Assembly (NCBI GenBank): GCA_008632985.1
Contig: QPGO01000211.1
Coordinates: 1-64,000, forward strand
Source of the DNA: Psammoneis japonica
Taxonomy: Eukaryota
Direction of reading: 5' to 3'
Length of the DNA stretch: 64,000 bases
A model generated the notes under the pieces. It did no database searches and was not told the origin of the DNA. It was given only the letters and a program-made list of their open reading frames with translations. Positions 19,750 to 48,559 of the stretch are shown here, one piece after another. Position 1 is the first letter of the stretch. Each line of letters begins with the position of its first letter. A program made the position numbers and the translations under genes.

Positions 19750-21120
19750 AAGGCTTGACGGTAGGCTTCGAGGCGGGTCTGGTCGGCGGTAAAGGGATGA
19801 TAACGATAAAACAAAATGTGTGTTGTTGTTGTTGTGGTCGTTGAACAGCGGCCGAAGAGGAAGCTTATGCTGATCCTTCTTCTTCTTCTTGCATGATGGG
19901 TAAGGTTGTTACTATTGATTGATTGCAGATGGTATTTCTGTTCGAAAGAGGAGATTTTTCTTGTCGCGTGGGGTTTCTCTATCAATCTCCATGTCATGGT
20001 TGTAGCCACGTCATCTTCTTGACAAGATGAAAGAATAAGGCTGCCGTTATGTTGTATCTGGGTGAACAAATCCCACTATGTAAAAAACAAACCCATAAAC
20101 AGATGGATTAGCTTGAACCCAAGATGACCGGTAAAACATCTTTATAGCGGCAAATCCCATTTTCTTCGACAGGAGCTCAATCACATAGGAGCTGAGTAGA
20201 GGGAATTTATTCGCATCCTTCGCCGATTCCGGAAAGTGAGCAATGATGTGACTAACTGCCAGACGCCCACGCCATCCCGTCAATCCGTAAAAAAGCTGTT
20301 CAACGTCCTCGATCTTTTCAACGTTATTCGTTACTTCTGTAATGGCTTTCATCATTGGCAGCCCGAAAAGACACCTCGCCGACCCACCAAAAAACCAATG
20401 CTCAATTTCAACGACTTTGTCAATCGTATGCTCTTCATGATCATCGAGTCGGCCAGCCATCCCGACTTTGAAATCTTCGATAATTTGCGTCTTTTCTCTT
20501 CTTGCTGCATCTTTTTCACGAAGGAGTCAATTTCCGTACGTGTCCATGAAGGACAGCAGATTTCTTCCCACCCAAGTTCAGCAGGGTTTCCTGGGGAATC
20601 ACAACATGCTGGCCAGTGGCCCAAACCATCTGATCATAGTCCAACTCTGCACCACAACTGCTGACATCCTTCTTGTTTTCTTCACACATGCCATCCACAA
20701 TGCACATGTTAAACCTCTGTTCCTCAAGAAGGGCTGAAGGTTTGAGGTGCTTGAACTGTGGCTCTCCGCTGTCAGGGTGCATGGTCATCACCACAAAAGA
20801 GGGACAGCTGGCAGTGGGCAAAAATGGCACCACAGGGCCCAACAGGTCATGTTGAATCCATGGTTTACAACTTGCTTAAGAGCCAAAACCAAATGGTGGT
20901 TGATTTTCCAACTCCAGGGGGGCTTGTGCGGCACAAGAACTGCTTCTTAAAGATTGCCACAGGCCAACCAAAGCATCTCAAATTCACAAGGAATTCATCT
21001 TGGTTGCAGACCTGCTTTGTCCAAATGATGAATGTCTCAGATGACAGCATCTGAATTGCTGTGCTTTCATCTCTCTCATCCCTCACATCCTGTTTGATTT
21101 GAGTTTTGCTCAACATGGAT
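19750..21120 (-). pseudogene. Disrupted P-loop NTPase resembling Crinkler/RHS-associated CR-NTPases
   Basis: SPPGVGKSTT Walker A; CIVDG; CPSWTRTEI; WFFGGSARCLF; NPSVYGFVF; several frameshifts; 3' limit uncertain. Confidence 0.5.
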
Positions 21121-22439
21121 CATCTGCTCAGCAATGAAAGTTGTGTTTGTCAGTCTCCCTGTCTCTCAGCCATCATGCTCAACAACAGTTGCATGCCACA
21201 AAGAATGTTGCAAGGCTGTTGTCAGTTGTCTCCAATGCAAGACTGATTGTTGAGAAGCTGGCATCTCCTTCGGTCTGTGGTCTGTGTGCCAGATGTTGTG
21301 GATTTGCATGCAACAAGTTGCCCAGCTGTGCTCACCAGCAATTTGGCCCAGAAAACTCACAATTTCAGCCAGTTTTTTTTTTCGTTTAAAGACATTTGAC
21401 TGGATGCTGTGTTGCTGCTCATCAGCAGGGTATCTCTGTTTGCCCTCTCTCTGAGGCATCATTCTGGAGGTGATGTGCTGGAGTTTTGGCCAGTCATGTT
21501 TGCAAACAACAACCAAAGTGACCTGGCCCATTTCATGCTTCCATTTGGGAATGCCCAAGCCAGAGCAACTGCATCTGGCTTTGATGCTGTCAGAGTGTCA
21601 TCACAGTTGTGCTCTCCCTGCACCCATTTTTGTTCAGCACTTTGCACCATGGAACAGCAAGCTAGAAGAATCCAGTCTCCTGGCCCTCTGTGCAATGCCA
21701 TCACACAAAACTTGCTTTGGTGGTGCACCTCAACACAGCACCCCACATTTGGACATGCTGCATCTCTGCCAAACCTCTGCAAGAGTTGGCCAAGATCATG
21801 TGTGTTGTGGAAGAAGGCCACGTGACATGCCTTCTTCCACCCATGCAGCAGCGGCACCTCCAGCACCTGATCCCCAGCTCCATGCTGGTTCAACTTGTCA
21901 TCTGTGCAGCTGGTGCCAAGTGCTGAGGAAGCTCACAACCAAGAAAACCACAGTGCTGATGCTAAAATGGATGATGGCACCACCGAGATGTGGTTTGTGC
22001 ACTTTCCTTTGGTGCACCCATGGCGTCAGCCAGCCCACACCAGTGTGTCAAATTTGGCATGGTGGAAGCAGGTGGACCTTGTCTCGGCAGCTTAAAGCAA
22101 ATTGATGAAGAAGAAACAAAGTCAAATGATTGTGTGGCAGCAAAGCAACAAATGTGGCAAGCAATGTGTTGTAGATCTGGCTTTTGACTCTCTCCGCTGG
22201 CACAAGGGACACCCAGTGGCTAGATCTCCAACCAACTGGAACCTTGTCATGTCTCCAAAATTGTTTCCGTTGAAGCACGTCATCTCCATTCTCAAACAAA
22301 AACAAACTAAATTACAAGAAAGGCTTGCATGGACAAGCCAAGGTTTAGCCACACCCATGCATGGAAGTTTTGCGCTTGATCTCTGCATGTTGTTGTGACA
22401 TCACCACTCGTTTTGACTTGGCACATGCAACAACAGATC

Positions 22440-24380
22440 ACAAAACATTGAGTTGCCACCTTGTTTCATGGGGACGAGTCAAATGGTGACATGCAATGCA
22501 TCGAAACTCCAATTGTTTGCCATGAAAACACAGACTGATCCCAATGCATCGTGTCGACATCACTGAAAATTGCACCGACACTGACAGCGCTTCCATCTGC
22601 TGACACAGACACAGCCTCTCCAAACCAATCGCATTCAGCCTCTGCATGTGAAAGAATGTCCAACTGATTCCATCTCATTGAGTTGGCATCGCATTGAAAA
22701 ACTCCAACATGACCCACATCTTCCAATCCATTGATGTCATGAGACCAACTTCCAATTGCCACAACATTTCAATTCCCACTCAAGGACACAGACCTGCCAA
22801 AAAAGTCACCTGGCTGTGACGTGACCAAAGATTGACCACGTTGCATCCATGTTGACGTGTTTTGGTCATGAACACAAACCAACACCCTCTCATCATTCAC
22901 CTTGACTGATGGTGCACCCATGGCCATGATCAAACTGGTGTCATCAAGAGATGCAGAACACCCACACAGACCAAACCTGACTTGTCCATTGATTGGACAG
23001 CCCAATGGAACCCATTGCAATGATGAAGCTTTGCATTCAAACACCAAAACCTGCCCAGCAAGATCTCCGCCGGCATCATTTCCCTGTGCCCCAATGCAAA
23101 CAATGGTCCCCGAGCTGCTCAAGGACACCAGTGCCCCCAACTCATCACGGGCAACTTGCCCAATTGGTGTCTGTCCAAGTTGGTTCCATGACAATGTTTC
23201 AATGTTGCATTGAAGCAATCAAGCCAATCCAGAATTGGTGCCATTGTCAGTGTCATCCCAATGAGCCCCCATGGCCAGAATGACTCCCATCTCCGACAAT
23301 GACACGGAATGGCCAGAGCAAAAAGAAAAATCACCCGCAGCTTGTCTGTCAATGTCGCTGCTGAGTTGCACCCAATGGCTTGCAGAGAAGTCACATTGAA
23401 AGCTCAAGCTTGGCCAGCCTTTGCTTCACTGCTGCTGTTCAACAGTGCGCCCACAGCCAAAATCGCACTGTCACCATTCAAAGACACGGATCCCCCAAAT
23501 TCATCACTGTTGGCTTGTCCAACCAGTGCTTGACCCATGGGCATCCACTGCTGTGTGGTGGAATTGATCCATTGCATGGAAACAAAACCAGATTTGTGAG
23601 AACGGCATTGCTCAGCTCTCCCACAGCTGTGATGGTTCCGTCTCACGACAAGGAGATGGCGGCACCAAAACAATCATCATCAGCATTGCTGTGCAGAACT
23701 TGTCTGAGAAGTTGCCCCACTCCTGGAGTGGCTGGTGTGGGAGGCAGGGATGGATCAGTTGACAGCGTCAGCAAACTGGTTGATGCATTGTCACCACCTC
23801 CTCCTGTCACTCCAACAACAATTCTGACTGCGGCACCAACAACCAAAATTGCAGTTCCCAACGCAATTGAGTGTTTCCGATGCTTGTTGCTCAAGGGTGC
23901 CTCGTTTCCAATCTGATCATGTTCATCATTGCTGGGAACAGCTTCAACAACATGTGCATCCGCTTCAGCCACAGGAGCTGTTTGTCGAAGGCAAGAGCAG
24001 ATTCCTTCTCTTAGACAAGCATTTTCCTCATCATTTGATTGAGCAAGTTCGCCTTCTGCAACAACTGCACTCTCATTGTCTGCACTCGGTGGTGACATGG
24101 GATTAGAATGAGCTGTTTCCAGGTCTGATGTGAGCAACATGTGATCACTGCCATCAATTCCCCATCCACGATGGACCTGACACCCTTGGCTTGCAGCGCA
24201 TGCCCCTGCAAGACTGGCTGCCAAAGCTTTGCCGGCATCCTCTTCCTGGTTTGAATTCTCTCTTTCTTTGTTCCCATCGTCATCATCTTGTTCACTTTGG
24301 TCTTGCTCCTCTCGATTTTCTTTGTCACAAAGATGCTGACTGGCACATTGTTTCTTTGTTGCCCCAATCAACGCCCCAGT
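22440..24380 (-). pseudogene. Decayed type II membrane protein with FG-GAP/integrin-alpha-like beta-propeller repeats (copy A)
   Basis: Repeats WxQLGQxxxGQxxxDEFGxSVSLSxxG; single TM segment (IALGTAILVVGAAVRIVVGV); in-frame TGA stops; Tyr absent. Confidence 0.75.
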
Positions 24381-24892
24381 GAGCAGCTTTCACCTCCTCG
24401 ATCGCTGACTCGTCATGTGTTCTCTCAATCAAATTTTCTTCTTTGTCGTCACTTTCAGCTTTTGCAGCTCATTTGTTGGGACCATTCATTGCTGTCCTGG
24501 AGTGCAGTCAACTTTGTAAAGTGTGGCATTTTGTGCTGACTGCTGACAATGATTCAGAGTGCAGGGAGCCCTGTTCCCTGTGTGCCTCTCCGTTGCTCTG
24601 CTCTCAGGATTTTCGAATTTGCTGTGTCCAAGACTGACAACTCCCCAAGTTCCATGGATGTGAAGTAAAAGTTTGCACGCATCATTGTTCATTTGCACAT
24701 TCATGTGTTAACACAGAAATAAATTGACACACAATGTCAACGTCTTGGATGCACTGCTGTGAAATGTCAACAGTTGGCGTGTGGAGAGGAATCTTTTCAA
24801 TAATTTTGTACGATGAGAGTGCTGTCATTGCCGTCTGAGTCTCAAGTAAATGATGCTTTCGATGCTGCACCTCTGTTGCTTCTGAAAATCAG

Positions 24893-26660
24893 ATGGGAAC
24901 AATGAATTGCTCCAAAGAAAGGCCAAAAAAGATGGATGGATTGGAGAAAGGAGACATGGAAGGCGAACACGAGCAAGAACAAGAACAAGCACCCCTCGAT
25001 CTGGCGAATCGCATTCATGAAACACAATTGGAGGAGGAAGACAGCAATGAAGACACTGACACAAGCATTCCGTTAACCATGTTGCAACCTGAAGGAGGTG
25101 CTGCTGAGGCAGACAGCATCACAACCATGTCCAAGTTGCAGTCTTGTCAGTCAAATGCAGGTCTCATGCTTTCACGGGTTGACAATGCAGAAATTGATCT
25201 GCCGAGAGCCAAACTTGCCCAGTCCAATGATGGGGAAAATGTTCGGCTCCAAGCAGAGGTTTCTCACCTTCGTCAGTCACATCTGGTTGCTCAGGCGGCT
25301 GAGGAGATTCGTGAAGACATGTCGGTTGACAATGAAAATGCAAAGAAAAAATGATGTCACAGACGTCTCATTGTTTTTGTTGTTCTCCTTTTGGCGATTG
25401 TTCTGGTTGTGGCTGTTGCAGTGCCCGTTTCTTCCAGCACCAACAGCAGCGGCGACATCAACATTGAGAATCCTGAAACACTGAAACAAGTTGCTGCATG
25501 GCAACCCATTGGACAAGTCTTGCACGGCAATGCCCAGGAGGATTTTTTTGGAACCTCCAACTCCTTGTCAAGGGACAGGACCACAGTGGCCATGGGAGCA
25601 TGTCGATTTGTCTCCGTGCATTGAATCAACCCTGACACTCAACAGTGGACACCCATTGTCAAGAATTGGTTGGATGAGCCATTGGTGACAACTTTGGGTG
25701 GTCCTTGTCATCAAATGGTGCGGGCACAATTTTGGCTGTTGGAGCATGTGATGTTGACAGTGACGGATTCAGTGCTGGTCAAGCTCAGGTGTTTGAATGC
25801 AATTCCTTCATGGACCACTGGCTCCAGCTTGGCAGTGACATTGATGGAGGGGTTTCGGGTGACAGGTTTGGTTTTTCATTGTCCACATCCGAGGTGGGAG
25901 ACATTCTTTCCATCGGAGCACCGTTTGATGACACAGGCAGCGGTCGCCATTCTGGATCAGTCCCATTGTTTCAACTCAAATGTGGTGCTTCCTTGTGGAA
26001 CCAACTTGGACAGATGCTGATTGGACAAGCTGCAGGTGATGAATTTGGAGCTTCAGTGTCCCTGAGCAGCTCAGGAAACATCGTTGACATTGGAGAACTC
26101 AAAAGTGGATTGATCGGAAGCTCTGCCGGTCCGATTTTGGCATTTGAATGCAATGCTTCAATCTCACAATGGGTTTCATTGGGCAATCCAATTGACGGAC
26201 AAATTGCTGATGGTCAGTTTGGAATTTCTGCTTCTCTCAATGACAGCGGCTTGATCATGGTGGTGGGCGCATCTGGAAGCAACAAGAGAGTGTCAGTTCA
26301 TGCCCTCAACTGCACATTGTGACATGGATGCAACGTGGCCAAACACTGCTTGCTCCGCAGCGAGGAGACAATTTTGGTGGATCCATGTTGCTGAATGGGA
26401 ATGGAGCTGTCTTGGTTGTTGGGAGTGATTCTCATGATGTCAATGGATCAGTGAATGAGGGTCAAGTTTCAATCTTTCAATGTGACACCAACACAGTGTA
26501 ATGGAGTTGAATGGGCAATCACACAAATGGCACGAGTCTGAGTTTGATCATTTTGGACATGCCGTGTCCTTGTCGGCAAACAGAAGTGTTGTTGCAGTTG
26601 GTGTGTGGGAGAGAGGTGTCAATTTCGACCAATCGGGGTTGGCACATTTGTTCACAGTAA
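24893..26660 (+). pseudogene. Decayed FG-GAP-like repeat membrane protein (copy B, head-to-head paralogue of copy A); a third fragment lies at ~26800-26960
   Basis: Shares LAQSNDxEN, the TM segment and WLQLGSDIDG..GDRFGFSLS / WNQLGQMLIGQAAGDEFGASVSLSSSG with copy A; stops and frameshifts. Confidence 0.75.
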
Positions 26661-27923
26661 AAATTAGAGCCTTGATTTTTGCCCTTTGCGGTTTGACTTG
26701 GTCCAATCCACCTCTGGTCATGAGTGTTGATTGTCACAAAGCCCACAATGGCACGTCAATGTTGACACTGGTTGAAACCAGAACACATTGCAAGCAAAGC
26801 TTTGGATCCAATCAATGGACAAATCACCAATGGTTGGTTTGGGTTGTCTGCTTCTCTTGATGACAGCAGTTTAACAATGACAGTGAGTGCACCTGAAGGC
26901 AATGAAAGTGTGTTGGTTTACATCCATGACCATGAAATGTCAACATGGAAACATTTGCCATTCAGCTTGGTCCCAGCTGGTGGCATGGCAGGAGCATTGA
27001 TTGTCTGACAATGACACAGCAACCTTGCAAGTGGTCATGGCCAGGTGCCCACACAAGAATGAATGACCACCTTGACATCTTCCATCACCAGAAAACCCTT
27101 GTGGCCCATCAAGGTTAAGGTTTTCACAATGTGCTGGCTTTGCTGTTTCTCATTGAGAAACTGTGCTTTGTTGAGGAATGTGGGCTGAACAAGAATTGCA
27201 GACTCAAAACGAAACTTGGGCACCTGCAATTGTGCATCAATCTCCTGTGTTTGTTTGGCACATCATCCTTCATGGAGTGTTCTTCTGATCATCCTCCTTC
27301 CACCAATTTGCACCTTTTGTCACACTTCTTTGCCTGGTGGACAAAGGAGGTTGGTTGAAACAGCGCTGGCTTTGGGCACAGGCTTGTTCCCACACCTGCC
27401 TGAAGCAGGTGTGTGGGGCACTGAGGACAATGTCAACAATGCACTTGCATTGGGCATTGGGCATTGCTTCATTGTTGGCAGTGCTGAATGACTCCTGTTG
27501 AAAACAATTGGGTCAATCACACTGGTGCTTTTGGTGGCCATCATCATGATGTGCTGTCTGCACCTGAGAGCTTCTTTTTCAAGCAAAAAGCACTTGACTG
27601 CCAAAGTGCAAAACAACAACACAATGTGCTGGCAGCATTTCAGACAGGAGCTCTCTTTTGAAAGTGACACAGCAACATCATCAATTGCACAGAGCTGTTC
27701 AAGGAGAAAACACTGTGCACACTGGCACACTTGAGAGAGTTCAAGCAGGATTTTTTTTTGTTTCAAGCATTTTTGGCTTTGTCATGGTGTGCAAAAGCTG
27801 CCAATGGCATTCTTGTGGCTGGTTTTGATAGAGATCCTTGTGTCGGTGCAGGAATGACACTGCCGCTGAGACCCCCCCCACACCAGGAGAATTGTGATCC
27901 CTGTGAGTCCGGGTGCACTGTTC

Positions 27924-28370
27924 TGCAATGTGCAGCTGCTGACAAGAGCCAATGCATCATGGCAACGTGTCACAGCCTTTAAATGTCACAAAGGGCGTGA
28001 CAAAAACAACCTTTTGTCTGCATGCATGCTGCATCATGAATTCACAGCGGAGTGGTTCATCGCAACCATTGGGCAGGAGACCAGGGGTTCGAAACCCTGA
28101 GTGGGAGTTGTCTGCAGCAACGTTGATCACTGTCAAACGCGCAAAACTCTGTGCAGTTCTGCATGTTCCTTCGCACGTACCCACACTGTTCTGCCAAAAC
28201 CGTGCAGTGTCAGTGCACGCCAGTAAAGAGCCGCATGGATGCGTGACACATGGGGAGGAGTGCAACGCACAGCTGCTGACAAGAGTCAATGCATCATGGT
28301 GACGTGTTGCAGCCTTTAAATGTCACAAAGGGCATGACAAAAACAACCTTTTGTCTGCATGCATGCTGCA
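27924..28370. repeat. ~110-bp direct repeat (27924-28033 and 28261-28370) downstream of the copia RNase H remnant
   Basis: cagctgctgacaagag...cctttaaatgtcacaaaggg...gcatgcatgctgca occurs twice. Confidence 0.9.
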
Positions 28371-28399
28371 GTTCTTCTGGTGAACAGCGCAGAGCACAG

Positions 28400-29540
28400 T
28401 GGTGCATTGTCGCTGCCAGGCTGGGGGCCGGTGGCAACTGCTCAACATGTGTCCAAGTGTCAGCAGAACAGCATTTGGGCAACATTCTTGGCAAGTGTGT
28501 TGCTGCAGTTGGCGGTCGCATTGATGCAGCCCATCTTGACCATGTCACGTTCAACCCAATCCTGCAGTGCAAAGTGGTGCATGTCCACATGATGGGTGTG
28601 TCTCATGGGTTGACTGGCACTGGTCATCATGAGAGATGCATTGTTGTCTTCACAGATCAATGTGGCCTGTGTGTGTGGAAATGACAGTTTGCCAGGACAG
28701 AATGAAGGTGCAGCACCATCTTTCCTGCACCCAATGCCGCAACAAGTTCTGCTTCTGAGGAGGATGCAGAGACAGTTGGTTGAACTCCAGTCTTCCATGC
28801 AATGGCAGTTCCAGCAAGCAGGAAAGCTGTTCCTGCAACAGATCATCAATGGTGCATGTCAGCAGCCCAGCTGGAATCCTTGTGTCCAGTCATTTCATGT
28901 GGAGATGCGGCCTGTGGAGGTTGTGGCACTCTGGTGTCATGGGGCACGGTCTTGGGTGATGGTGGTGGCATGAAGGGGGGCATCTCGTCAGGGCATTGGC
29001 ACCAGCATGTGAGACCAAAATCCAGATGTTGCTTGAGGAACTGAAGGGCATTCTTGACCCCATCGCAGTGCATGGTGCCTGGGTTGGACCCGAGCTGGCT
29101 CAGCTTGGTTGTCCATGGCCCAGATTAATTCACCAATGGCCTTCAGATGCAAGAAACCATGTTGTTGCTAGAGGGCCTTGGAGGCAGCAGCATCTGCGGG
29201 AGTGGGGGGCTCATCCAACAGTGTGGAGCAGGAGGCATCACCTGGCATGGGAACATCAGGGGATGTCTGGTGTGTGTCAGCTGAGCCAGCAAGAAAATTG
29301 CAGTTCGTGAGCATCCGCTTCACATGGGAGGTGCTGTGGAGCTGAGTGCAGTCCTGTTCTGTTCCACATCACATCCCAGAAAGAGAGTCAGGAGGCCCTG
29401 ATGTTTGATCTTGCCACCGGTGAGATGACAATCCACAATGTTGCAGCAGATGCAACAACGCGTCTCGTCCGAGTTGGTGGTGATGGTGAAGTCATCTGCT
29501 TGTTGCAGGAAGAGCACCTCCTCTCCATTCACTGTGCCAC
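28400..29540 (-). mobile_element. Ty1/copia reverse transcriptase C-terminus plus RNase H remnant
   Basis: EVLFLQQADDF (from RQVDDF); DSSWAAD...AIAWKTGVQPTVSASSSEAE; TLICEDNNA...HVDMHHFALQDWVERD. Confidence 0.85.
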
Positions 29541-31009: not shown

Positions 31010-32990
31010 CATTGCAACAAACTTTCTCCCGCTGATGCCGATGCCCTTTGCCAAGCCCTGTCCTTTCTCAACCCAACCAACAACCCTGCCATGCAACCAG
31101 AAATCACCACTGGCATCCGTTTTCTTGGCCAACCAATCGGCTCTACCAAATTCGCTTCAAATTTCCTGATGGACAAAGCAGAAACTTTCACCTCACCGAC
31201 AAACAAACTCAAAGCACCCCATTTCACAAATGTGCAATTCCATCCATTACACACCTCCTTGCCGCAGACGTTTGTCACAACCTGATGCACAACACCAACT
31301 GCCCCAACCCCTTCGAATGGGCCTCCCCCTTCAAAGACACCATCATCAGCCACTCACTCCGATTTCTCTCATGCCCTGCTGAAACAACTGCACCTCTCCT
31401 GTCGGCAGCCCATCTTGTTGCCACCCTCCCAGTCTCCCTCAGCGGCGTCGGATGCCACGACATCTCTGCTGCTGCCATCCTTTCCTTTGTCACCTCCCTT
31501 GCCCATTCCATCCGCTGCACCAAACATGGCATCCCACTTGCCGGTGACCAACTCTTCCACCTCCCCCAAAGCTGTTCCACTGCCCTTGGCTCCTGGTCTA
31601 ATCTACAATCCAAACTTTCACTCTGTGCCATCTTCAAGCACCATGCTCCCCCAAAGCTGTTCCACTGCCCTTGGCTCCTGGTCCAATCTACAATCCAAAC
31701 TTTCACTCTGTGCCATCTTCAAGCACTGTGCTCCCATCCTCTTCCAATGTGACTCACCATCCTTTGAGTCCCTCAGACACTCTGTCGAAAACCACAACCC
31801 ACGTGGCCTTGCCCAATGACTCCACCACTGTCATCACAAACACAGCATGCTCTCATAAATCCTGAACAACTCTGCCATCCAGCCAGCTCTCCCATCCCTT
31901 CTTTCTCCCCTTGCAAGTTTGTGCCTTCACTCCCTCTCAAGACTTCACCCATCCAACAGATTGCCCTCTGCATCACTCACCCTCCTTCTTCTGCAAAAGC
32001 TCCGACTCCCTGCTGTCTCTTCTGATTTTCTTTCCAAAGACTGTCCTTGTGGCTGCACCTGACCAGATCCATGTGGCAATCATGCATTCACCTGCATCAA
32101 AATGCACAAAGCCCCACTCTTGAACCATCTTCGTGACACCCTTTGCACGATCATTGAAACCCTGGGCCCTCTCAGCGGCCTGTGCCGAACCTGCCAACAA
32201 GTTTTTCTCAACCCAACCAGTCTTCTGGCCAATCATCCTCTTAAACGCCCCACTGACATTGGAGCACAACTCATTCCCGGCTCCACCCTCCCTGACGCCC
32301 CATCTGCACATCGATTTCTCGCCATTGATGTTGCCGCACCTCCAGCTCCCCCCCCCCCCCCACCTCCTGCACCTGGTTTGCCTGCCCCTGAAAACCCTCT
32401 TGCCAAGGCTCACCTCAGCAGTGCTTGGGACAAGCTGCTTGGCCGCACAACATCTGCAGCCTGCCACTTAGACATCATCAATGCCGTCAACCATGCTGGC
32501 TTGTTCCTTCTCCCTTTTGCCATCCACCACCTCAGTGGCGTTGGACACCATTTCCATGTTTTCTTTTTTGGCCAATCTGCCACGTCATCCTCTCCAATGC
32601 CTCCTCTCCCACCCAAACCACCCTGGACAAACCCATCTGACCTTTCCCACTCCCAAGCTTCCTTCTCGGCATGCAAAAACTCCCTTCCAGCACCCTCCAA
32701 CTTTCTCACCCGTGCCAACACTGCCTGGAGCAACACATCTCTCCTGACCGACTCGGCGACTCACATCACACCGCTGCTCCCCTTCTGTGGGCATCCCAAA
32801 TCCTGAGCTCAAACTTCAGCTTTGCCCTTTCATCTCACCTCTCGAACTGCCAACAACTCCTTCTCACACACCCAACTGTCGCCAACACATCCAATGCACA
32901 CCCGTCCATCCACACCATCAGCCAATCCTTTTTCTCTTCACCACCCAGCGTGCCACACGCGACTCTCCCTCCAACCAACCACACATCTCC
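31010..32990 (+). mobile_element. Non-LTR retrotransposon 3' remnant with restriction-like endonuclease (CRE/R2-type architecture)
   Basis: GIRFLGQPIGS (end of RT); LPVSLSGVG; CPCG...DPCGNHAFTC..HK...NHLRD Zn knuckle at ~32040-32140; RPTDI...AIDV (REL PD..D motif). Confidence 0.75.
31561..31730 (+). repeat. 85-bp tandem duplication inside the non-LTR remnant
   Basis: Units 31561-31645 and 31646-31730; ctccc microhomology at the junction. Confidence 0.95.
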
Positions 32991-33220
32991 ACTGCCCTCT
33001 CTCTAGAGCAGAGAGAGACACCCAATTTTAAAACATCAATCAACGCCCCACATTCTGTGCAGAGGTGCACAAATTGTCTGTTGTCATTCCCACACGCGCA
33101 TTCGCACACTCAGCACGCTGCATGCGGGCGACAACAGATGATTCACGCACCTCTTCTGTGCCCGGTGCAAACAACAGAGTGTGGTCAATTCGTTCCTCTG
33201 CCCCATTGATGTTTCTTTAA

Positions 33221-33686
33221 CCCTTCAACCACCAGGGGAGCAAATCTCCACGGGTGGAGATTTGCTCCACTCAAGGATGTGTGACGTGTCATGCACTTTT
33301 ACAATGATGCAATGAACACAGTAAAAAAATGTCGCATCGTGTGCAATCTGCGTAAAGTGTGCCACGTGCATTTGCTCATTGGGAGCAAATCTCCACCGGT
33401 GGAGATTCTCTCCCAGGGTGTGGTGTCATTGCTCTGTTTGTGATGGCAATTCATGATGACCTCCATTGTTAAAGGTTGAGATTTAGTTCCTCTCTGTTCA
33501 CAGATGAAGCTTGCAAAAAACCCGGTGTTAAAAGTCGACATTGAACTTTCTAAATTGCAAAAAGGGTGCCTCCAGATTTTCAGCGAATGCGTGTTCCAGA
33601 ACAAAATCGCGCGAATGAAATGTTGCACATGTCTGAAATTACTTCATTTGCCACATTTGTGATGCAAGCGCCCGGTGGTTGAAGGG
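33221..33686. mobile_element. piggyBac-type MITE (466 bp)
   Basis: TTAA target duplications at 33217-33220 and 33687-33690; TIR CCCTTCAACCACC(A/G)GG; two internal ~32-bp palindromes. Confidence 0.9.
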
Positions 33687-33789
33687 TTAAGATGCCAGCG
33701 GTGCAAGTGAACAATGTGAAAGGAGAGCCTTTGACAAAAATCGTGTCCGGGGAAACTGCAGCGCAGGCTGAAGAGAGAATTTCCAAATG

Positions 33790-34800
33790 AACAGAGGGTG
33801 TCCTGGAGAATTCAGACGGTGTTGCGCTTTCCGCTGGTGATTGTATCACGGCAGAAGGAGTGCCTTGTGTGTTTGAGCCTCTGCAGCAACAACAACAAGT
33901 TGACACAGTGCCAGAAGAGTGCAAACAACTTGCTGCCTTTGCAAAGGGGGAAATGGACAACAGGACGAAGCACAAACCCATGTCAGAAGCATCGGTGCCA
34001 TTTGCAAAAGAAACATTGAAAGGGTGCGGATTTACAGTGGAAGTGGCCCCTTTCATCACCAAGTGCGGTTCCGGAGCAGACCCACCCCCATGTTCATGGA
34101 AAATTGTGGACGGAAAACCCAAGGAGTGGAAGAAAGGCAAACATGCTGGCACACCTGGAGCTGGGGACTGGGTTCGTGACAACCTGTTGGGTGACGACAC
34201 AAACTTTGGTCTCAAGGTTGTTGCCGGTTCTGTGCTGCCAAAGATTAAAGCCAATCGTCGCAGTGCTTCGGGAACGGGAGATTTAGCCATTGGAGATCCA
34301 ATTTCGATGAACCATGGAGAAGAACATTTGTTTGCGAACGGTTTGGTTGAATTGAAAACACATGAGCATCCCTTGAAAACTGGACAAAGTTTGCTCCAGC
34401 TGCTGGCATTGTCGATGATCAGTCGCCTTAAAACAGGCGTTGCCCTTCTCGCTGCCGACTGCCATGCAAAATGGGAAACCTTTCACTTCTCGAATGGTCA
34501 TACGGTGCAACGCCAAATTTATCAGCACGGCCGAAAAGCTTGGGAAGATTTCATGGAATTGATCAAGTCTCTGGGAATGCAGGTCTTTAAGATAAAAATG
34601 GACACAATCGACGAAGAGGACGAGCAGAACCTGGATGGTTTTCATTTTGGAGACCAAGAAAGTAAGAAATTAGAAGCAGTGTAGGACGAGGCGTTGCTCG
34701 AGCGCATGGCTGACCATCTCGGCGATGTCTACGGCGAACGACCAGTTGTCCCATTCTGGGCCCGTGCAGAGTCAAGAGTTCCTGACTGCTGCGTCTGACG
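33790..34800 (+). pseudogene. Degenerate PD-(D/E)xK restriction-like nuclease fold protein (Crinkler REase-like)
   Basis: SGTGDLAI...GLVELKT...QSLLQLLALS...VALLAAD motif order; premature stop at 34684. Confidence 0.45.
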
Positions 34801-34899
34801 CACAGCCATCAACAGGAGGAGGCGGACAGCTGCTGCCTGTTGCGGCATAAATGACAAATGCTTCTAGTGTCTCAAAGCCAGCACAAGGCACTCCAGAGC

Positions 34900-37800
34900 A
34901 GTGCACCAAGTTGACGATAATTCAAAAACAAAAACCGGCCTTGTCGTAGAACAAAAACAAAAACACCCCTTACACACATTTCCACACCAAACCACGCATG
35001 TGCATGTGGGGAGCCACAAGCCAACAATGCCGGCTTCAGTCGACAGCAGCAAAAACAAAATGGGCAAGACACACAATGGCGCGTTTGAATCCATTTGTGA
35101 CGGCAATTGTCAATCAATCATGACGCAAGTCAATGCAGTCATGGCTGCTCAGTCAAGGCAAGCCCAGAACCAAGTCCAGATGGCTGAGGCGATCTCTCAG
35201 ACGCTAACTGCGGAAGCTAGAGACAAGATCATCGCCAAGAGTGAGCAATGCAAGATCAACAACATACAAGTTGGTGCACTGTTCTTCAAGTTACTCACCC
35301 AGAAGGCCATCGTGGACACTCGCTCAACTGCAAACTGCTTCGGCAAGAACTTGTCCAGCCTTGACTTGCACATGTCAACCTGCAACTCAAACATCAAAGA
35401 GTTCAACAAGTGTGTCAAACTCAACCATGATGGCCTCAGAGCTGGGGGAGAAGGCTGCGATGACCCAGTCATCAACCCATTCAAAGGTTACGCAGCAGCT
35501 GGCAACCAAGCATTCATCAAGTGCATGGCTGACATTGAACAGAAGTGTGACGATGGTGAGGACCACACTCCGGAACAAGTCATGCAACTGGCTCTCAACA
35601 AGTGCACCAATCTTGATCAAGCAGAGAACTGGGGAGCACTCTCTCCAGAGCAAGAAAGGATTGTTGCACTCACCGCGGAAGTCAAAACCATCAAGGACCA
35701 CAACCTCAAGCTCTCCAAGGCTCTCAAGAGCACTCCTGACAAGTCCAAGGGAGGTGGCGGCAAGCAGAACTCCAAGAACAAGAGCAAGAACCCAAAGCGT
35801 GCCAAGAAACAGGACAAAGCCTGGAAGAAGACTCTGCCAAAGGACAGCAACCCCACAAAGACTGTCAATGGTCACAAGTGTCACCACAAGAGTCAGAAGG
35901 GATGCGCCTGCCATTGGTGCAAGTGCCACTCTGCTTGGGTGGCTCACTTGCCTGATGATCCGGGAGACAAAGGCTGTCAACTTCGCAAAGCTCAAGAATC
36001 TGAGAGCCGCTCATCCAACTCCAACAAGAAGGCATCCTGCACAAATGCTCTGGCCTCAATCATCAAGGACCTGGAGTCCAAGGAATGACTGATCCAGGAA
36101 GCATTCTGGACACAGGTGTTCTGCATGAAGGTGGCCCTCATCACGTTCACAATTGCCCTGGTCACCACGAGCTTCGTAGACACGATGACCCACTGTTGGT
36201 GCTCACAGTGTTCACGGCACTCAACCCACCAGAGAACAAGTGGAAAAGTGCATCCAAGTGAGCAATGACGTTGGGTGAGTGGATTGTTTCACAAATCCCA
36301 GCTGACGGCATGACTGGCAGATGCAAACCAAGGTGAAACAAGAGTCAACACTCACCGCGATGCATCACTCCCAAGAAGAAAGGCCATCCCACTCAAGTGG
36401 CACACAAAAGGCTCAATGCAAGATCACCTTTCACAAGACAGTCTACGCCAACTCCTCAACCACCACGACGCCATTCAAACAAGAGCTGAGGTTGGAACCA
36501 GCATCTTGTCCATGCAACCTGCACAATGTCGAATGACAGACCACACTTTGTCGGCAACGTCCTGCAAACAAGCAGATCAAAGGAGCAGGCAGATGGTTAG
36601 ATGCAGAAGGAGAAGGCACACTCAAGTGGTGCACCAAGGATGATGACGGACAGGTGCACATGATCACCATCTACGACGCACTGCATGTTCCCAACTCACC
36701 CATTTGCCTCCTCTGCCCTCAGCAATGGAGCCGTCAAGCACAGGATCATCACCCTGAACCACATGGAACAACTTCCTGGAACCAAGACAATGGTCTCCTG
36801 CTCATGTGGGATCAAAGGAAGCACACAAAGCTGGTCCCTTGGACCAACAATTCCAACGTTGCATGCTTCCGTTCCACACCCGGTGCTGCTGACTGCCGGG
36901 CATTTGCCTTTGCAGTGGATGCTGATGACAATGTTGAGACTGTTGAGCACGCAGCCCATCAGACGCACGTGACATCCACAGATGACAAAAGTGACTCAGA
37001 GTCCATGGATGCTGCAAATGACAAAGATGCCTTCACAAGTCCTGACGAGACAGGTCCTGACGAGACCCAAGGCACACGCAACAATGTTGATGAGGAAGTG
37101 CCACTGTTGTTCAAACCGATGGATGCTGCACACAGATCCAACTCACCTGATGAGAACCTCAAGGATCTGGTGACCCCAGAAGTCCAAACCTGCCTGCAAG
37201 ACCCCATCAAAGTCATCCCTGATGATGATGCCCTGGCGGCCACCGACAACCAAGCTGGCAGCTCCCAAAAGTCTGCCCGACGTAGATGCCCATAGACTTG
37301 CACTGGTTTTTCGTCAAAAGTCTGCCCGTTTGGAGTGCAGCTTCTGCACAATTTTTGCACCAGTGTGTCTCATGAACCGTGGACTTTTCTACGTGATTTT
37401 TTGTGCAGAATTCGTGCAACAGAAATCAAACCGAACATCTCACGAGGCAGCGGCCTTTTTGGGATTTGTTGTGCACACAATGCACCAGATTCTCGCATGT
37501 GGACACAAAGGTGGAAAAGACAAACAAACACACTGGGAACTTCAGCGAAATTCTACGTGCAATCGGGCAGACTTTTGTTGTGGGCAAACTTTTGGGAGCT
37601 GCCAGCAAGGTGAATTGTTGCGTTGGCACTGCTGTCTTGGACACCAATCATTCAAAATGACAAAGCTCCTGGCTGTGTTGGGTGTCCTCCTGCGACACCT
37701 CCTGAAGGTCAAGAAACCCAAATGTGCTGGCTGCCTCTGTGGCGCCATGACCAAACGCCCTTGGTGCACCAAGTCCAAATGGAGGTCAAACATGCATGTC

Positions 37801-38850
37801 GCTGCAAAGCCAGGGGAGGTCATGTCGGCAGATCAACTCAAAAGCTTGACCCCAGGCTTTGTCCCTCAACTCAAAGGGAGACCTGCAAAACAGCAATGCA
37901 GAGCAGCAACAGTGTTTGTTGATCACCATTCAAAACTGGGATGTGTGTTCCTGCAACGATCACTTGCCTCCAAAGAAACCCTGAAGGCCAAGCATGCTTT
38001 CAAAGCCTTTGCGAGACGACATCATGTCCAAATCAAACACTGCCATGCCAACAACGGTCAAGTTGCTGACAATGCTTTCACACAAGACGTTGAGAAACAG
38101 GGTCAGACAATGTCATGCTGTGGCATCAACACCCACTTTCAAAATGGCATTGCCGAGAAGCGAATCCGCAACCTGCAAGAACAGACTCACAAGCAGCTGC
38201 TGCACGCAAAAGCAAGATGGCCAACAGCCATCATTGAGATTAATCTCTGGCCAAGTGCACTGCACAATTCCAATGAGCTCAAGAACAACTCACGCAGCCA
38301 TGAAGATGGCAGCTCGCCAATCAAATGATTCGCCTCCATCAAAGTTGCTCCAAATCTCAAGCAACACCACACTTTTGGATGCCCAGTCTACGCACTGGAC
38401 AACTGACTGCAGAGTGGACAGAGAGCACCTGAGTGGCAATCAAGAGCAAGGTCAGGAATCAACTTGGGACCATCACCAAGACACACTGGATCAGTCAACA
38501 CAGTGCTCAATCTTGAGACGGGACTTGCCTCACCGCAGTTTCACGTCCAATTCACAATGACTTCTTTGAAACAGTGGGCCCTTCAGCAGGGAATGCACCG
38601 GCTTTCTTGCAATGGCAAACCGCACCAGGACTCAAGAAACAAAGAACATCAAGATTCAACATCTTCAAGACCCAAAAGGAAGTGAGGGAGCCATGCTCCA
38701 CTGTGCCAGTGCAGACCACTTTGGCGCCAGAACCCGATGTTCCGCAACAACTCAAAGATGAGCATTTTCCTGTTGTGGAGGACAAGATGCCAGAACCAGC
38801 AGGAGATGCACCAACTGAAGACACTCAGGAGATGGCAGTGTGTTGGAGCA
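34900..38850 (+). mobile_element. Diatom Ty1/copia (CoDi-like) retrotransposon remnant: gag, protease region, GAG-pre-integrase and integrase; RT absent
   Basis: Gag with WCxxHxxWxxH...C knuckle; GEGTLKW...DALHVPNSPICLLCPQQW; LLRWH..LGH...CAGC; SADQLKS, ATVFVDH, HFQNGIAEKRIR, GPSPRH...LETGLASPQFHV. Confidence 0.9.
37255..37605. mobile_element. 351-bp MITE inserted in the copia pol region
   Basis: 24-bp TIR ctggcagctcccaaaagt(c/t)tgccc; 4-bp TSD CAAG at 37251-37254 and 37606-37609; removing it restores D-N-Q-G-E-L-L-R-W-H. Confidence 0.9.
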
Positions 38851-38899
38851 TCTAAAATGAGTGGGGCAATGTCCGGAACCCAGAGCTGTTGAAGAGAAG

Positions 38900-41700
38900 A
38901 TGCTTCAACTTCTGAAATTGCATTGTGGTGTCAGCAGGTGCCTGTTGTGTTGTTGGATTGAAGTTTGTTGAGGACTTCCAGGCAAACCACGGCCACCACA
39001 GCAACCAGGGCAAGTGCAACAAGTCACGCAGGAAACCTCACAGGATTCCCTTTTGGTGACATTGACTTGTTGTTGGTTTGACACTTGGCGTCAGATTCAC
39101 CATGGGAGGCAGAGTCAGATTTCACAATGGCACTGGTGTGGGAGGCATTGTTGGAATTGGTGCAGGAGGCAGAGTTGGTTTTGGCAATGGCAGTGGTGTC
39201 AGATCAATGGCAGAGGCCTGTGCAGAGTGGGTTTGAATGATGCCTGTGGCATGGGAGGCAATGATGGAATTGGCATTGGATGGAGAGACAGCTTTGGGGA
39301 TGGAGGTGGTGCAGAGTCAATTGTGGGAGGCGGAGTGGGTTGTGATTGCAACTGTGGTGTGTGGGAGGCAAAGACAGATTGGACGTCGGAGGAAGAGATG
39401 GTGGTGTCAGCAACAGAGGTGGTGTGGGGTCAGCTGCAGGAGGTGCAGTGGGTCTCAATGATGGGTTTGGCATCAGAGGCAGAGATGGCTTTGACAATGG
39501 AGGTGGTGTGGGGTCAATTGCAGGAAGAGGCACAGTGGGTTTTGGTGACATGATGGCAAAGTTGGAGGTGCACCTGGGCCAGACATTGGAGGGACTGCTG
39601 TGGTCTCTGGTCTTAGAAACACAAGAGCAGTCTGCATGACAGCAGCAGTTGGTGGTGGTGCTTCTGGTGCATTTGTTGTCACAGCTGCCAATGGTGGTGT
39701 CAAGGTGCTTGGTGGCGGGGTGAAAGTTGCTGCAGGCAAAGATGTTGTTGCTGCCAGTGCAAGACTTTTTGGCTGTGAGGTGGTGCTTTGACTTGGGGGC
39801 AAACTTGTTGGAGCACTGCCAGGAGTCAGTGTTGAGTCTGTTGGTGGAGCAATGTTTGACTGTGGAGTGGAGGAGGGAGAAGTGGGCAAATTCATTAAAG
39901 TCCCCACTGGAGTTGGAGAAGCTGCTGATGTGAGACTGTTGGGTTGGGGTGTCAAGGACAGATGTGGCAGCAGACTCATTGGAGATCTGGCTGGTGCCAA
40001 CATTGAATCTGTTGAGAGCTGTTTGGCATTGACACAGAGGTGGGAGATGGTGGAGATTTCATCAGAGGTTTGCCTGGAGTTGGGGCAGAGCCTGCAATTG
40101 GTGCCAATGCATTTGGCTTGGGTGCAGAGGATGGACAAGAACAAGGTGAATTCATTGGGAGTGGTTGGCCAGGCGACTGCTGGTTCAGATCCATTGGTGC
40201 TCTGACAATTTCAACAATGGACCCATTGGAGTCAATTGTGTGCAGCTCAGAAGTCACTGGGAACTCTTCAATCCCAATGTTGAGGAGCCACAGAGTCAAA
40301 ACTGTCTAAAACTTGGCTGCAGAAAATGATGTGAACTGCATTTTGATTTCTTCATTTCTCCTGTGAAGCTCATCTTCTGGGTGTGGCTTTTGCAAACAAA
40401 CAAGCCCTTCTCTTCACCAACTGATTCACTCATCTTGCTGTCAATCCCAGAGCCAAACACATGGGTTCAATTGAAGGGAACCCAGCATTGCACACAATTT
40501 TTGCTGTCCAACTGGCATCCATGAACAGCGCCATTCTGTTTCCACACAAGAGCAGCTCACAGTTTGCAAGCTAAACATTGCTGATGGATTGCCCTGTGCA
40601 TGTCTCTCAGCCTCCTGACATGTTGTTGTGCACTTCTTTGAATGTTGTTTCTGTCAGCTCTCTTTCTTCAAGCACAAATGGCCTTGCAGGTCATTCAAGG
40701 CAACATGATGCATGGCACTGATGTTGAGTTTGGTTTACATCACATTGCAACCCTTCCAATGAAGCAAGGCTTGAAGAGCTGTTTTTGTTCTCAGTTGCAA
40801 GAACCGCCCCTGATGTGACAGAGGCAGCAACAAGAACAGCCATCACAGCCACTGCTGATGCAATGGCTGCACCCATTCCTGTGCCCAGGCCAGTGGCTGT
40901 TGCTGCTCCAACTGTCATGGCCACTGTTGCACCAGCTGCCACAGCAGCTGCATTTGCCACAGCCTGAGTGGCCATTTCTTGCTGGTGAGCAACCACTTGT
41001 GCGCTGCAGCACAGAAATGGGACAATGACTGTGGGTCAGTTAAAGAATTGCTCAAATTAATCACAACAATGCACACACACATTGAACAAGCAACTTGTGC
41101 TGGCAGCACAGCTCCAGCTCCTCCTCCTCCTCCCTGTTCTTCTTGTGGTGCCACCATGCTTGAGGGGCACCCTTTCCATCTAACCCACACCAGCATCGTT
41201 GTCATCATCTGTTTTGTTGATGCTCTTTTTCAATTTTGTTGCTGCATGACTGACCATTCCCAAACCAGCCATGCCGGCAGTTGCAAAAAGAACCTTCCGT
41301 TTCATGTCGCTGCTGTCTTCTTCTTCCATGCTGGTGTGTTGCCATCATTGCTCTTGGCATTTGAATTTGATGTGCTGCCATCAGAGCTTCTGTCATGGCA
41401 GGCAGCAAAAACAAAAAGATCTAGAAAGACCAAAATGTTGAACACAAGCACACGTCATGAAGCAGCAAAAGGCAACATTTGGTTGGGTGGATGGACTCAC
41501 ACCGCACTTGCCAAATCTTGTTCTGAACCTTGTGGCATCAGAACCTTCATGGCTGCTTTCTTCAGAAGAGGAGTCATTCTTCATGCTGATGAATGCTGCA
41601 AATGCTTAACAACACTGGCAATTGATGTTTTTGGGCAGGTGTTTTGCTCTTGTTGTGACAGAAGCATCATCCAAAATGGTGCTTTTTGATTTTCTGTGAC
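38900..41700 (-). pseudogene. Decayed Pro/Thr/Ser-rich (mucin/PT-repeat) surface-protein gene with an Ala-rich TM segment
   Basis: PTxxPT-rich fragments (39200-40150); AAAVAAGATVAMTVGAATATGLGTGMGAAIASAVAVMAVLV; many stops; TA-depleted. Confidence 0.5.
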
Positions 41701-42486
41701 TTTGCTTCATTCACAAGTGGAAGTAAAAAGTCGCCAGCCAGCCAACTCCGTGACACCTCCTTGCATGACTTGTCAACGTGATTCACAGCTTAAAATTTGC
41801 ACAAAAGTGTGCTACAAAGTTGTGGAATTTGAATTCTATGTCCAGCTGCTAATTGGAAAGGCAACAGATAATCATTGCTCCAAAATTCAAAATTCTCAAA
41901 TCGGGTGCGCGCCATCTTTTTTGTCACAATGCACAGCACAAACAAACGCCAACACCACATCTAACAATCAACAACGCGCAGCAAGCACAGCAAACATCGC
42001 CCAAAAACATTGGCAGCCACCATGGACTTTGACGATCCCGCTTCTTTTACTCTCATCAGTCGCTCCAACAGGTGCCCAACAATCAAGACATTGACAACGA
42101 CACTGCAACTCCCGCTCCAACAGACGAGTCGGCTGTCGACGGCAATGCCGCATAACGTCACTTTCGCGAATTTCTTCGCAACTGCCGCCAGGGCCCTAAC
42201 CGTCACTGGTGACGTGACCCTCTCTTGAAAATGCATCGCAGAGAAGTGCAATAACGGAATCAGAGCCGTCTCTTGAAGAGAATCAAGTGGTTGTTGCAAT
42301 AATTGTGTAGCTCTGACTCATAAAGTACAGTTTGTGGCTTGCATTTAGTTCACAGAAATATGACGGTCGCGTATCTCTAGGGCTAAACACTATTCAAACG
42401 ACCTTTTGTTCGTCTGGTAATGCAGAACGGCCAAGGGGCATTCGTGTCAACATGGAAAAATGGTAAACTATGCCTTATCACAGTTC

Positions 42487-48386: not shown

Positions 48387-48559
48387 TCGCCGACTGCTAA
48401 TGAATGCCTGAACGCTGAGTCGAAGTAGTGTCATCTTACTTGTCATTGCCAACTGTGATGACTTCGCGTCATGGTGATTTGAACGCACCCTCCGTGATTT
48501 TCAATTTTCAGCCAATCACATTGCGGCATTTCGGCATGCTTGTTCGAATCGTCGGACTC

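Follow-up and report, generated by a model that had tools for sequence, protein, structure and literature searches.

Which process could remove the dinucleotide TA almost completely from a long stretch of a diatom genome, when the genes on either side keep it? This question is raised by a window of 64,000 nucleotides (positions 1 to 64,000 of contig QPGO01000211.1, Psammoneis japonica, assembly GCA_008632985.1), in which a mosaic of unrelated sequences at 20547–41800 forms a TA-erased, CpG-decayed block. The composition and sequence comparisons described below suggest that a region-specific process acting on DNA probably converts TpA to TpG or CpA in this silent island, through A:T>G:C transitions that affect the TA step, a self-complementary dinucleotide, on either strand.

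Extent and limits of the TA-poor DNA

The main block (20547–41800; 21,254 bp) contains 107 TA, an observed/expected ratio of 0.08 versus 0.52 in the flanks, and 430 CG (ratio 0.33), and CA+TG reaches 1.74; the flank ratios are 0.98 for CG, 1.20 for CA and 1.23 for TG. The block is sharply bordered on the left, at about 20547, and ends on the right at about 41800. These values agree with the original prediction that TpA is nearly absent and CA and TG strongly enriched. Two TA-free stretches that had been proposed at 22348–24011 and 25076–26498 were both recovered, with coordinates within 2–3 bases. The longest run, of 1666 bp, spans 22346–24012 (P = 5e-27 if TA occurred at the same rate as in the flanks, with 1389 TA in 38,907 bp), and the second, of 1425 bp, spans 25074–26499 (P = 3e-23 at the same rate); the TA that closes it, at 26499, is CA in read run X1. 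The accompanying claim that CG still occurs in the TA-free runs holds for the pseudogene at 22385–23774, which has 28 CG and 0 TA, but needs qualification, since CG is nevertheless strongly depleted throughout the block (observed/expected 0.05–0.47 per kb).

The comparison of TA-poor DNA with the flanks demonstrates a narrow context specificity: TA and CG are down, CA and TG are up, and the remaining 12 dinucleotides shift by at most 0.12. Loss depends on the 3' base in the order TAT > TAC > TAG > TAA, and TTAA is the most resistant. AA stands at 1.21 versus 1.19 in the flanks, and AT and TT are likewise unchanged. Pol-eta-type WA mutagenesis would turn A into G at AA as well as at TA, which the AA values do not show; Pol eta, one of the candidates named originally, fits poorly because AA is untouched. 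A TpA Rho of at most 0.43 combined with CpA+TpG of at least 1.52, which defines a cluster in the Bigelowiella natans preprint discussed below when it extends over at least three consecutive 1-kb windows, was found in 13 consecutive windows (21001–34000) and in seven more (35001–42000).

Beyond the main block, five further islands of 0.8 to 1.65 kb carry the same signature in the window. They lie at 6001–7000, between the SF3A2 and RCC1 genes (TA 0.09, CG 0.41, CA+TG 1.55); at 44101–45750, where TA is erased (0.07), CG is mildly reduced (0.60) and internal direct repeats are present; at 48401–49200 (TA 0.14, CG 0.36); at 50901–52450 (TA 0.08, CG 0.44); and at 53851–54850, upstream of the MPC gene (TA 0.06, CG 0.28).

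TA depletion and CG depletion coincide in every island, with a Spearman correlation of 0.70 across 128 windows of 500 bp, as would be expected if TA loss were a by-product of cytosine methylation, with 5mC-derived T:G mismatches repaired in patches by an error-prone, Pol-eta-like activity and no enzyme specific for TpA. The somatic-hypermutation literature describes a preference of Pol-eta for A>G at WA; WA includes AA, which is unchanged here. Moreover, the island at 44101–45750 has lost its TA and yet retains CG at 0.60, and in the segments the loss of TA outpaces that of CG about 2–4 times, until TA reaches a floor of about 0.05–0.08 of expectation. Copia loci of other organisms (L030, L066, L068, L057 and L054) have CG reduced to 0.27–0.39 and still hold TA at 0.39–0.61. 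We therefore regard a methylation by-product as unlikely.

The flank TA ratio of merely 0.52, together with the non-functional nature of the islands, could also indicate a genome-wide TpA>TpG/CpA bias that shows up only in the absence of selection, without any targeting. The host genes speak against this. Among the 6405 codons of fourteen host ORFs in the window, GTA makes up 15% of Val codons, ATA 16% of Ile codons and CTA+TTA 18% of Leu codons; Tyr accounts for 2.2%, and TA at the codon junctions stands at 0.56, not at 0.07. The ordinary TA content that had been claimed for the flanking genes is thus borne out, and since these genes use TA-containing synonymous codons normally, the erosion is regional. 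Furthermore, window 4001–5000, which covers the gap from the end of one ORF at 4188 to the start of the next at 4695, has a TA ratio of 0.90, and the edges of the block are step-like. Such an untargeted bias appears quite improbable.

Constituents of the main block

We identified two FG-GAP_2 repeat pseudogenes in the block. The first (22385–23774, minus strand; Pfam PF14312, E=1.5e-6), whose span was set by tblastn of 78 homologues, carries frameshifts and TGA stops, and the second lies at 25436–26950 on the plus strand (PF14312, E=1.9e-12). They are inverted paralogues with 62–66% identity (34–38% divergence). A high-copy short element with a motif that resembles a tRNA T-arm (GGTTCGAAACC) occupies 28040–28265, between 110-bp direct repeats at 27924–28033 and 28261–28370; its summed contig depth is 26,000–37,000 versus about 60. 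No tRNA or Rfam match was found for this element or anywhere else in the window.

A medium-copy, less eroded repeat follows at 32840–34173 (TA 0.16, CG 0.57; depth 1500–3500), adjoining the least eroded segment, 34174–35093 (TA 0.27, CG 0.82). The latter overlaps a protein-like ORF at 33791–34681 on the plus strand whose family was not recognised: it has no relative among viral contigs, and a search of the ESM Atlas with this ORF and the ORF at 20050–20526 returned 'hypothetical protein' clusters only.

A truncated Ty1/copia element lies at 35094–39069 on the plus strand, with gag at 36256–37205 and integrase at 37483–38742 and no RT; its repeat limits, 35094 and 39069, were taken from loose contig ends, and its depth is 375–780. 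The integrase has 59% identity to copia integrases (phmmer E=1.3e-86), and tblastn with 150 copia proteins gave matches at the gag and integrase intervals only. The single-copy DNA at 39070–41800 is the most decayed part (TA 0.07, CG 0.11). Altogether, about half of the main block is single-copy at ≥80% likeness in run X1, and four single-copy stretches (20547–22384, 23775–25435, 28266–32839 and 39070–41800; about 10.8 kb) gave no Pfam family in a search of 147 short ORFs.

Among the 76 ORFs with a length of 100 aa or more, Pfam searches detected FG-GAP_2 (two ORFs) and gag_pre-integrs and nothing else, those of 147 ORFs of 50–99 aa gave 0 matches, and a relaxed rerun on 52 ORFs added Pol_BBD at E=0.047. 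The block had been described as holding two copia elements, a non-LTR element and multigene pseudogenes. One copia fragment and the two FG-GAP pseudogenes stand; the second copia and the non-LTR element were not confirmed, because Pfam and tblastn returned only FG-GAP_2, gag_pre-integrs, Pol_BBD and a single copia.

Two observations concern annotation. The copia integrase gives no match to Pfam 'rve' despite its 1e-86 phmmer match, an example of how erased elements escape Pfam. In addition, 33 ORFs of at least 150 aa overlap 20–43 kb; TA-free DNA is without TAA and TAG stops and therefore gives rise to long false ORFs.

Direction of change and read contigs

To establish the direction of change, we used columns of the copia proteins with at least 50% agreement among at least 40 homologues. 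Only one of ten conserved Tyr columns is kept, and five are now His or Cys (CAT, TGT, TGC); nine of the ten have changed, whereas the columns of all residues except Tyr and Arg show change in 52 of 219 cases (Fisher p=3.4e-5). Of 16 conserved Arg columns six are intact, and seven of the ten changed ones are now Cys, Gln or His. By comparison, Asn (8/8), Trp (8/8) and Phe (9/11) columns are largely kept. The integrase ORF (384 codons) has a single Tyr, 22 His and 21 Cys. TA was thus lost from this element by mutation, and its sense strand is enriched in CA and in TG alike, which shows that both strands were used. Related copia loci from metagenomes have TA ratios of 0.36–0.96 in 80 of 80 cases; among their 1269 1-kb windows, two fall below TA 0.25, neither of them with a gain of CA/TG.

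The repeated sequences give the same picture. Between the FG-GAP_2 pseudogenes, CA<->TG double differences number 59 where 8.4 would be expected (P=7e-30), next to 0 CG<->TA doubles, and four AC<->GT and six AT<->GC doubles as controls; the CA<->TG doubles evidently reflect independent conversion in each paralogue. Among 12 listed variable sites of the high-copy element, other copies have TA at seven and CG at three where this copy reads CA or TG, the TA variants making up 6–75% of depth. The 110-bp repeat pair differs at nine positions, which include three CA<->TG doubles and two CG changes. The FG-GAP Tyr columns are less informative. Nine Tyr-consensus columns are now Phe in seven cases, His in one and Leu in one, with no clean Tyr>His/Cys signal, and a noisy tally of all aligned Tyr, made with 78 distant homologues, gives Phe 29%, Cys 11% and His 7%.

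Contigs of run X1, built independently from reads at a depth of about 60, reproduce six single-copy stretches (13,611 bp) with 24 differing letters. Two other read runs contributed little: X2 matched mere scraps of the window and X3 none of it. Of the 60 TA sites that remain, at least three have TA in one version and TG/CA in the other (P=0.0012 for at least three of 24 differences falling on TA), and at least seven of 256 CG sites differ; among the 19 of the 24 single-copy differences that were listed, 13 are CG<->TG/CA. Three TA sites thus provide the evidence of recent activity, and these differences at residual TA hint that it took place in situ.

RNA adenosine deaminases favour U 5' of the edited A, according to the Discussion of the preprint (bioRxiv 10.64898/2026.01.13.699255), and TA loss could accordingly be the imprint of A-to-I editing that retroelement RNA underwent before it was reverse-transcribed. 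This is very unlikely: CA and TG are both up on the copia sense strand, the non-retro FG-GAP pseudogenes and unique DNA are hit equally, and changes occur in place between two versions of one locus.

TA avoidance is widespread among genomes, so native composition of the inserts, or selection against TA through avoidance of nucleases or insertion targets, could be put forward instead. However, the signature is common to unrelated sequences, the elements are broken pseudogenes, conserved Tyr became His or Cys, the copia relatives have normal TA (80/80) and other copies of the high-copy repeat retain TA. Such an origin is extremely unlikely, and the original view that the block does not show the native composition of one element is upheld by the Tyr columns, the copia loci and the repeat copies.

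A sequencing, assembly or polishing artefact is scarcely credible either: some platforms miscall modified bases systematically, but the independent ~60x contigs agree, and the affected genes also have frameshifts, stops and 34–38% paralogue divergence. The comparison with read contigs therefore came out in favor of the TA-poor sequence, with the proviso that X1 may be the assembled sample itself, so that the agreement excludes assembly or polishing error and not a read bias at the level of chemistry.

Proposed process and comparison with known systems

The Tyr columns, the paralogues and the CA+TG gain support the conversion of A:T to G:C at TpA on both strands of silenced DNA that was originally suggested. 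The repeat targeting proposed along with it stays a conjecture, given that about half of the block is single-copy, and so does a role in defence. The process would act on a silent region made up of transposon relics and pseudogenes. In parallel, and separable from it, CpG would decay in the way usual for 5-methylcytosine, with CA and TG as the common sink. The process may be carried out by a dedicated enzyme directed to silent chromatin, where it would inactivate mobile DNA. The most likely enzyme would be an ADAT/TadA-like adenine deaminase that acts on polynucleotides and whose product inosine would be copied as G; a thymine modification of the 5hmU type could be an alternative route. The natural tRNA substrates of ADAT do not match the order TAT > TAC > TAG > TAA found here. 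If a dedicated enzyme exists, this order, with TTAA as the most resistant context, would be its footprint.

More tentatively, diatoms may carry a chromatin-directed, enzymatic TpA mutator of double-stranded DNA, an adenine-deaminating or thymine-modifying counterpart of RIP that is allied with cytosine methylation against transposons and shared with chlorarachniophytes. We consider this wider reading possible but somewhat doubtful; as part of it, a mutator common to both groups would therefore be old within the SAR supergroup. Diatoms offer working genetics (CRISPR, transformation and known DNMT mutants) as a route to the enzyme, and an enzyme that occurs in nature and mutates A to G in DNA specifically at TpA would be of interest for base editing.

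Fungal RIP resembles the proposed process in that context-specific transitions on both strands wreck repeated or mobile sequences in situ and may extend into the DNA next to them. It is the opposite in direction: RIP makes TpA from CpA by C>T and GC falls, whereas here TpA is destroyed by A>G/T>C. RIP as the cause was ruled out, the TA of 0.08 and CA+TG of 1.74 being the reverse of the increase in TpA that it produces. As for duplication of the RIP type, the FG-GAP pair, the copia element and the high-copy element are repeated, and other parts are single-copy at ≥80%.

CpG decay of 5mC, as known from methylated transposons, appears to operate in the main block, judging from CG at 0.33 and from the seven of ten changed Arg columns that turned into Cys, His or Gln. 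The TA loss goes beyond it, as TA falls faster than CG, even in the island with CG 0.60. As a sole cause, 5mC decay was discarded: a C>T change at CG leaves TA untouched, and Tyr (TAY) turned into His/Cys.

The footprints of APOBEC3 and ADAR in animal retroelements are likewise deaminase-type, context-dependent hypermutation of mobile elements. These enzymes act on single-stranded cDNA or RNA, strand-specifically and on retro-copies only, in contrast to the use of both strands and of non-retro DNA seen here. A strand-specific, retro-only A>G imprint was excluded on the same two counts. TadA-derived adenine base editors, which prefer a 5' pyrimidine, resemble the proposed process in producing A>G in DNA via inosine and differ from it in being engineered and Cas9-guided. 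To our knowledge, no natural eukaryotic TpA mutator enzyme with double-strand symmetry has been identified.

A full-text literature search found no description of TpA hypermutation in diatoms, nor did the passages of PMC9998398 and PMC3145265, which mention diatom DNMT4/RID relatives and hold nothing on TA. No such system had been thought to be described at all when this locus was first noted. This has to be corrected, since the available text of a 2026 preprint reports exactly the same signature in Bigelowiella natans, where TpA hypermutation was first shown experimentally, in integrated viruses (Mettrop et al., bioRxiv 10.64898/2026.01.13.699255). According to that text, two integrated viral regions acquired 231 de novo mutations, of which 230 were A>G or T>C, all of those at TpA. 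It also reports TpA-poor, CpA+TpG-rich clusters and an enrichment of low-TpA genes for RT and DDE domains (bioRxiv 10.64898/2026.01.13.699255). Hypermutation of the B. natans type would further be marked by a de novo rate about 1000-fold above baseline under mutation accumulation and by a candidate deaminase that resembles ADAT2 and has DNA-editing residues.

As far as these sources go, a single preprint on a single chlorarachniophyte documents the process. Its occurrence in a diatom, with a footprint at saturation, would mean that it is peculiar neither to one alga nor to giant-virus inserts, and would link it to transposon silencing and CpG methylation. The likeness to the NCLDV/virophage system of B. 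natans, as presented in the preprint text, covers the change itself (TpA>TpG/CpA), the use of both strands, the confinement to regions and the long-term cluster footprint. The host here is a diatom (Stramenopila), unlike B. natans, a chlorarachniophyte (Rhizaria), and instead of giant-virus inserts the targets that could be identified comprise a copia element, FG-GAP pseudogenes and a short repeat of high copy number. Erosion is near saturation here (TA 0.08), whereas the Rho reported for the B. natans NCLDV region is 0.45, and it is accompanied by strong CpG decay, of which the available text of the preprint makes no mention. The diatom process was deduced from its footprint in the sequence, whereas in B. 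natans a de novo rate was measured; the shared signature indicates that the two are apparently of the same kind, a hypermutation confined to TpA.

Composition and content of the TA-poor DNA

A dinucleotide count and a list of TA gaps over the window matched, nearly to the base, the two TA-free runs of the original prediction, which lie at 22346–24012 (1666 bp) and 25074–26499 (1425 bp). At the TA rate of the flanks, the window DNA outside the TA-poor parts, the longer gap has a probability of 5e-27. The main block (20547–41800) holds 107 TA in 21,254 bp (observed/expected ratio 0.08) and 430 CG (0.33), with CA+TG at 1.74; the corresponding ratios in the rest of the window are 0.52 for TA, 0.98 for CG, 1.20 for CA and 1.23 for TG. 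The remaining twelve dinucleotides differ by no more than 0.12 between TA-poor DNA and flanks. The block begins with a step at about 20547 and ends at about 41800. Its left edge coincides with the junction of two adjacent minus-strand ORFs without known family (20050–20875), one of normal (20050–20526) and one of erased composition (20519–20875), and may cut through one gene. Strand skew is strong inside the block (C 38–43% in 31001–33000; G 38% in 39001–40000). Five further TA-erased, CpG-poor islands of 0.8–1.65 kb, with the signature of the main block, lie in gaps separating host ORFs: 6001–7000, 44101–45750, 48401–49200, 50901–52450 and 53851–54850. Diverging ORFs border at least two of these gaps, and solo LTRs or other relics are possible origins of the islands.

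Within the block, Pfam detected two FG-GAP_2 pseudogenes (22385–23774, minus strand; 25436–26950, plus strand), inverted relative to each other and 62–66% identical, weak copia traces and nothing else. ORF 37174–38325 matches copia integrases (phmmer E=1.3e-86, 59% identity), and tblastn with 150 copia proteins placed gag at 36256–37205 and the integrase region at 37483–38742, and found no copia reverse transcriptase in the block. The second copia and the non-LTR element proposed originally were not recovered by copia tblastn or by Pfam on short ORFs. Pfam reported no integrase core (rve) in ORF 37174–38325 despite the phmmer match; changes of Tyr to His/Cys and of Arg to Cys/His/Gln appear to mask hypermutated elements in profile searches.

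Read-contig depth delimited three repeats: a high-copy short element (about 28040–28265), a medium-copy repeat (32840–34173) and the copia family (35094–39069); the rest of the block is single-copy, as judged at 80% likeness or more. The short element reaches a summed contig depth of 26,000–37,000, compared with about 60 in unique DNA, and is flanked by direct repeats (27924–28033 and 28261–28370). Because it contains the tRNA T-arm-like GGTTCGAAACC, it may be a tRNA-derived SINE; ARAGORN and Rfam made no call on it. The protein-like ORF 33791–34681 (plus strand, 297 aa), in the least-eroded segment, has unnamed eukaryotic (oomycete) hypothetical proteins as its closest Atlas clusters and no relatives in a search of viral contigs. 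Over 20000–43000, TAA and TAG are gone and TGA is the sole remaining stop; stop-to-stop ORFs that reach 150 aa or more and touch this region number 33, many of which overlap one another on both strands, and most are probably spurious.

Direction of change at TpA

Four independent tests (protein columns, relatives, paralogues and a repeat family) agree on a change from TpA to TpG/CpA. Among copia columns with at least 50% agreement in at least 40 homologues, Tyr is kept in 1 of 10, five being now CAT, TGT or TGC (p=3.4e-5 against all residues except Tyr and Arg), and Arg in 6 of 16, seven being now Cys, Gln or His; the control columns Asn (8/8), Trp (8/8) and Phe (9/11) are largely kept. Tyr-consensus columns of the FG-GAP pseudogenes are now mostly Phe, and their residue tallies are uninformative on direction. 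TA is 0.36–0.96 in 80 of 80 related metagenome copia loci; out of 1269 1-kb windows in these loci, only two are below 0.25, and neither gains CA/TG. The copia family is not natively TA-free.

In the FG-GAP pair, 59 double differences are CA<->TG, where 8.4 would be expected (P=7e-30); none is CG<->TA, and there are only 4 AC<->GT and 6 AT<->GC control doubles. Such CA<->TG doubles are the mark of a self-complementary CG or TA step that was converted independently in the two copies; three occur among the 9 differing positions of the 110-bp repeat pair 27924/28261. At 12 listed variable sites of the high-copy element, other copies have TA (6–75% of depth) at seven, where CA/TG stands here, and CG at three.

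Contigs built independently of the assembly from reads of sequencing run X1 (depth about 60) differ from it by 24 letters over six single-copy stretches (13,611 bp in total). Of the 19 differences listed individually, 13 are CG<->TG/CA, three TA<->TG/CA (22173, 26499 and 27829) and three other changes. Residual TA sites differ at 3 of 60 and CG sites at 7 of 256; the probability that at least 3 of 24 differences land on TA is 0.0012. These differences point to recent activity, and another X1 contig carries a TG<->CA double at 32745–32746.

Probable regional TpA hypermutation and its alternatives

There is good support for the central proposal, that a second process turns A:T into G:C at TpA in silenced DNA, and we consider regional TpA hypermutation likely. 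Beyond this, repeat targeting, a defence role and the enzyme are inferences. The loss is context-dependent: the TA-poor/flank ratio is 0.03 for ATA/TAT, 0.09 for GTA/TAC, 0.16 for CTA/TAG and 0.23 for TAA/TTA, and 23 of the 108 residual TA in TA-poor DNA lie within TTAA and none within ATAT.

A side effect of methylation-linked repair is an unlikely source of the TA loss: depletion of TA goes together with that of CG (Spearman 0.70), yet the two are separable, as in island 44101–45750, where TA is 0.07 while CG is 0.60. With the flanks assumed as starting composition, TA retention in younger segments would drop about 2–4 times faster (log scale) than CG retention, down to a floor near 0.05–0.08. 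Five environmental copia relatives (L030, L066, L068, L057 and L054) are CpG-poor (0.27–0.39), with CA+TG at 1.30–1.55 and ordinary TA (0.39–0.61), and thus indicate CpG decay without TA loss in other hosts.

An untargeted genome-wide bias is slightly less probable still, since TA across codon junctions is 0.56 in 14 host ORFs and the overall TA ratio is 0.90 in the segment 4001–5000, which covers the gap between an ORF end (4188) and an ORF start (4695); the loss is regional, not genome-wide. Across the 6405 codons of these 14 ORFs, 15% of Val codons are GTA, 16% of Ile codons are ATA and 18% of Leu codons are CTA or TTA; Tyr accounts for 2.2% of all codons. The flanking ORFs are long, intron-poor and eukaryotic (SF3A2, an RCC1 protein, JmjC/cupin, MPC, LSM, MORN and Vac14). 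Named best matches are all diatom for the JmjC protein (42–55% identity, the 55% match at 24% coverage) and, save one Tiarina transcriptome row, for SF3A2 (up to 69%), which identifies the host as a diatom.

Three more readings, namely native composition, the imprint of RNA editing, and artefact, are each very improbable: the copia relatives are ordinary in TA; CA and TG are both raised on the copia sense strand and non-retro DNA is affected, so the process acts on DNA, on either strand; and the X1 contigs reproduce the TA-free sequence, which excludes assembly and polishing error and nothing beyond, because X1 may be the very sample assembled.

Comparison with Bigelowiella natans

The original claim that no such system had been described is overtaken by a 2026 preprint (Mettrop et al., bioRxiv 10.64898/2026.01.13.699255), the only directly relevant account in our full-text literature search. 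According to the available portions of this preprint, 231 of 302 nuclear mutations in B. natans mutation-accumulation lines fell in integrated NCLDV and virophage regions, 230 of them A>G or T>C, all stated to be at TpA; the rate, about 6e-7 for each site and generation, is 1000 times the baseline. They also report 124 genomic clusters of TpA-poor, CpA+TpG-rich windows and an enrichment of RT and DDE domains in low-TpA genes, put forward an ADAT2-like deaminase as the enzyme, and mention neither CpG nor diatoms. The portions available of two diatom epigenetics papers (PMC9998398, PMC3145265) describe RID-related DNMT4 genes of unknown function and make no statement on TA. The main block passes the cluster thresholds of the preprint in 13+7 consecutive windows. 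Compared with B. natans, the new features are a different host group, transposons and pseudogenes as targets, erosion close to saturation, a link to CpG decay and a flanking-base rule.
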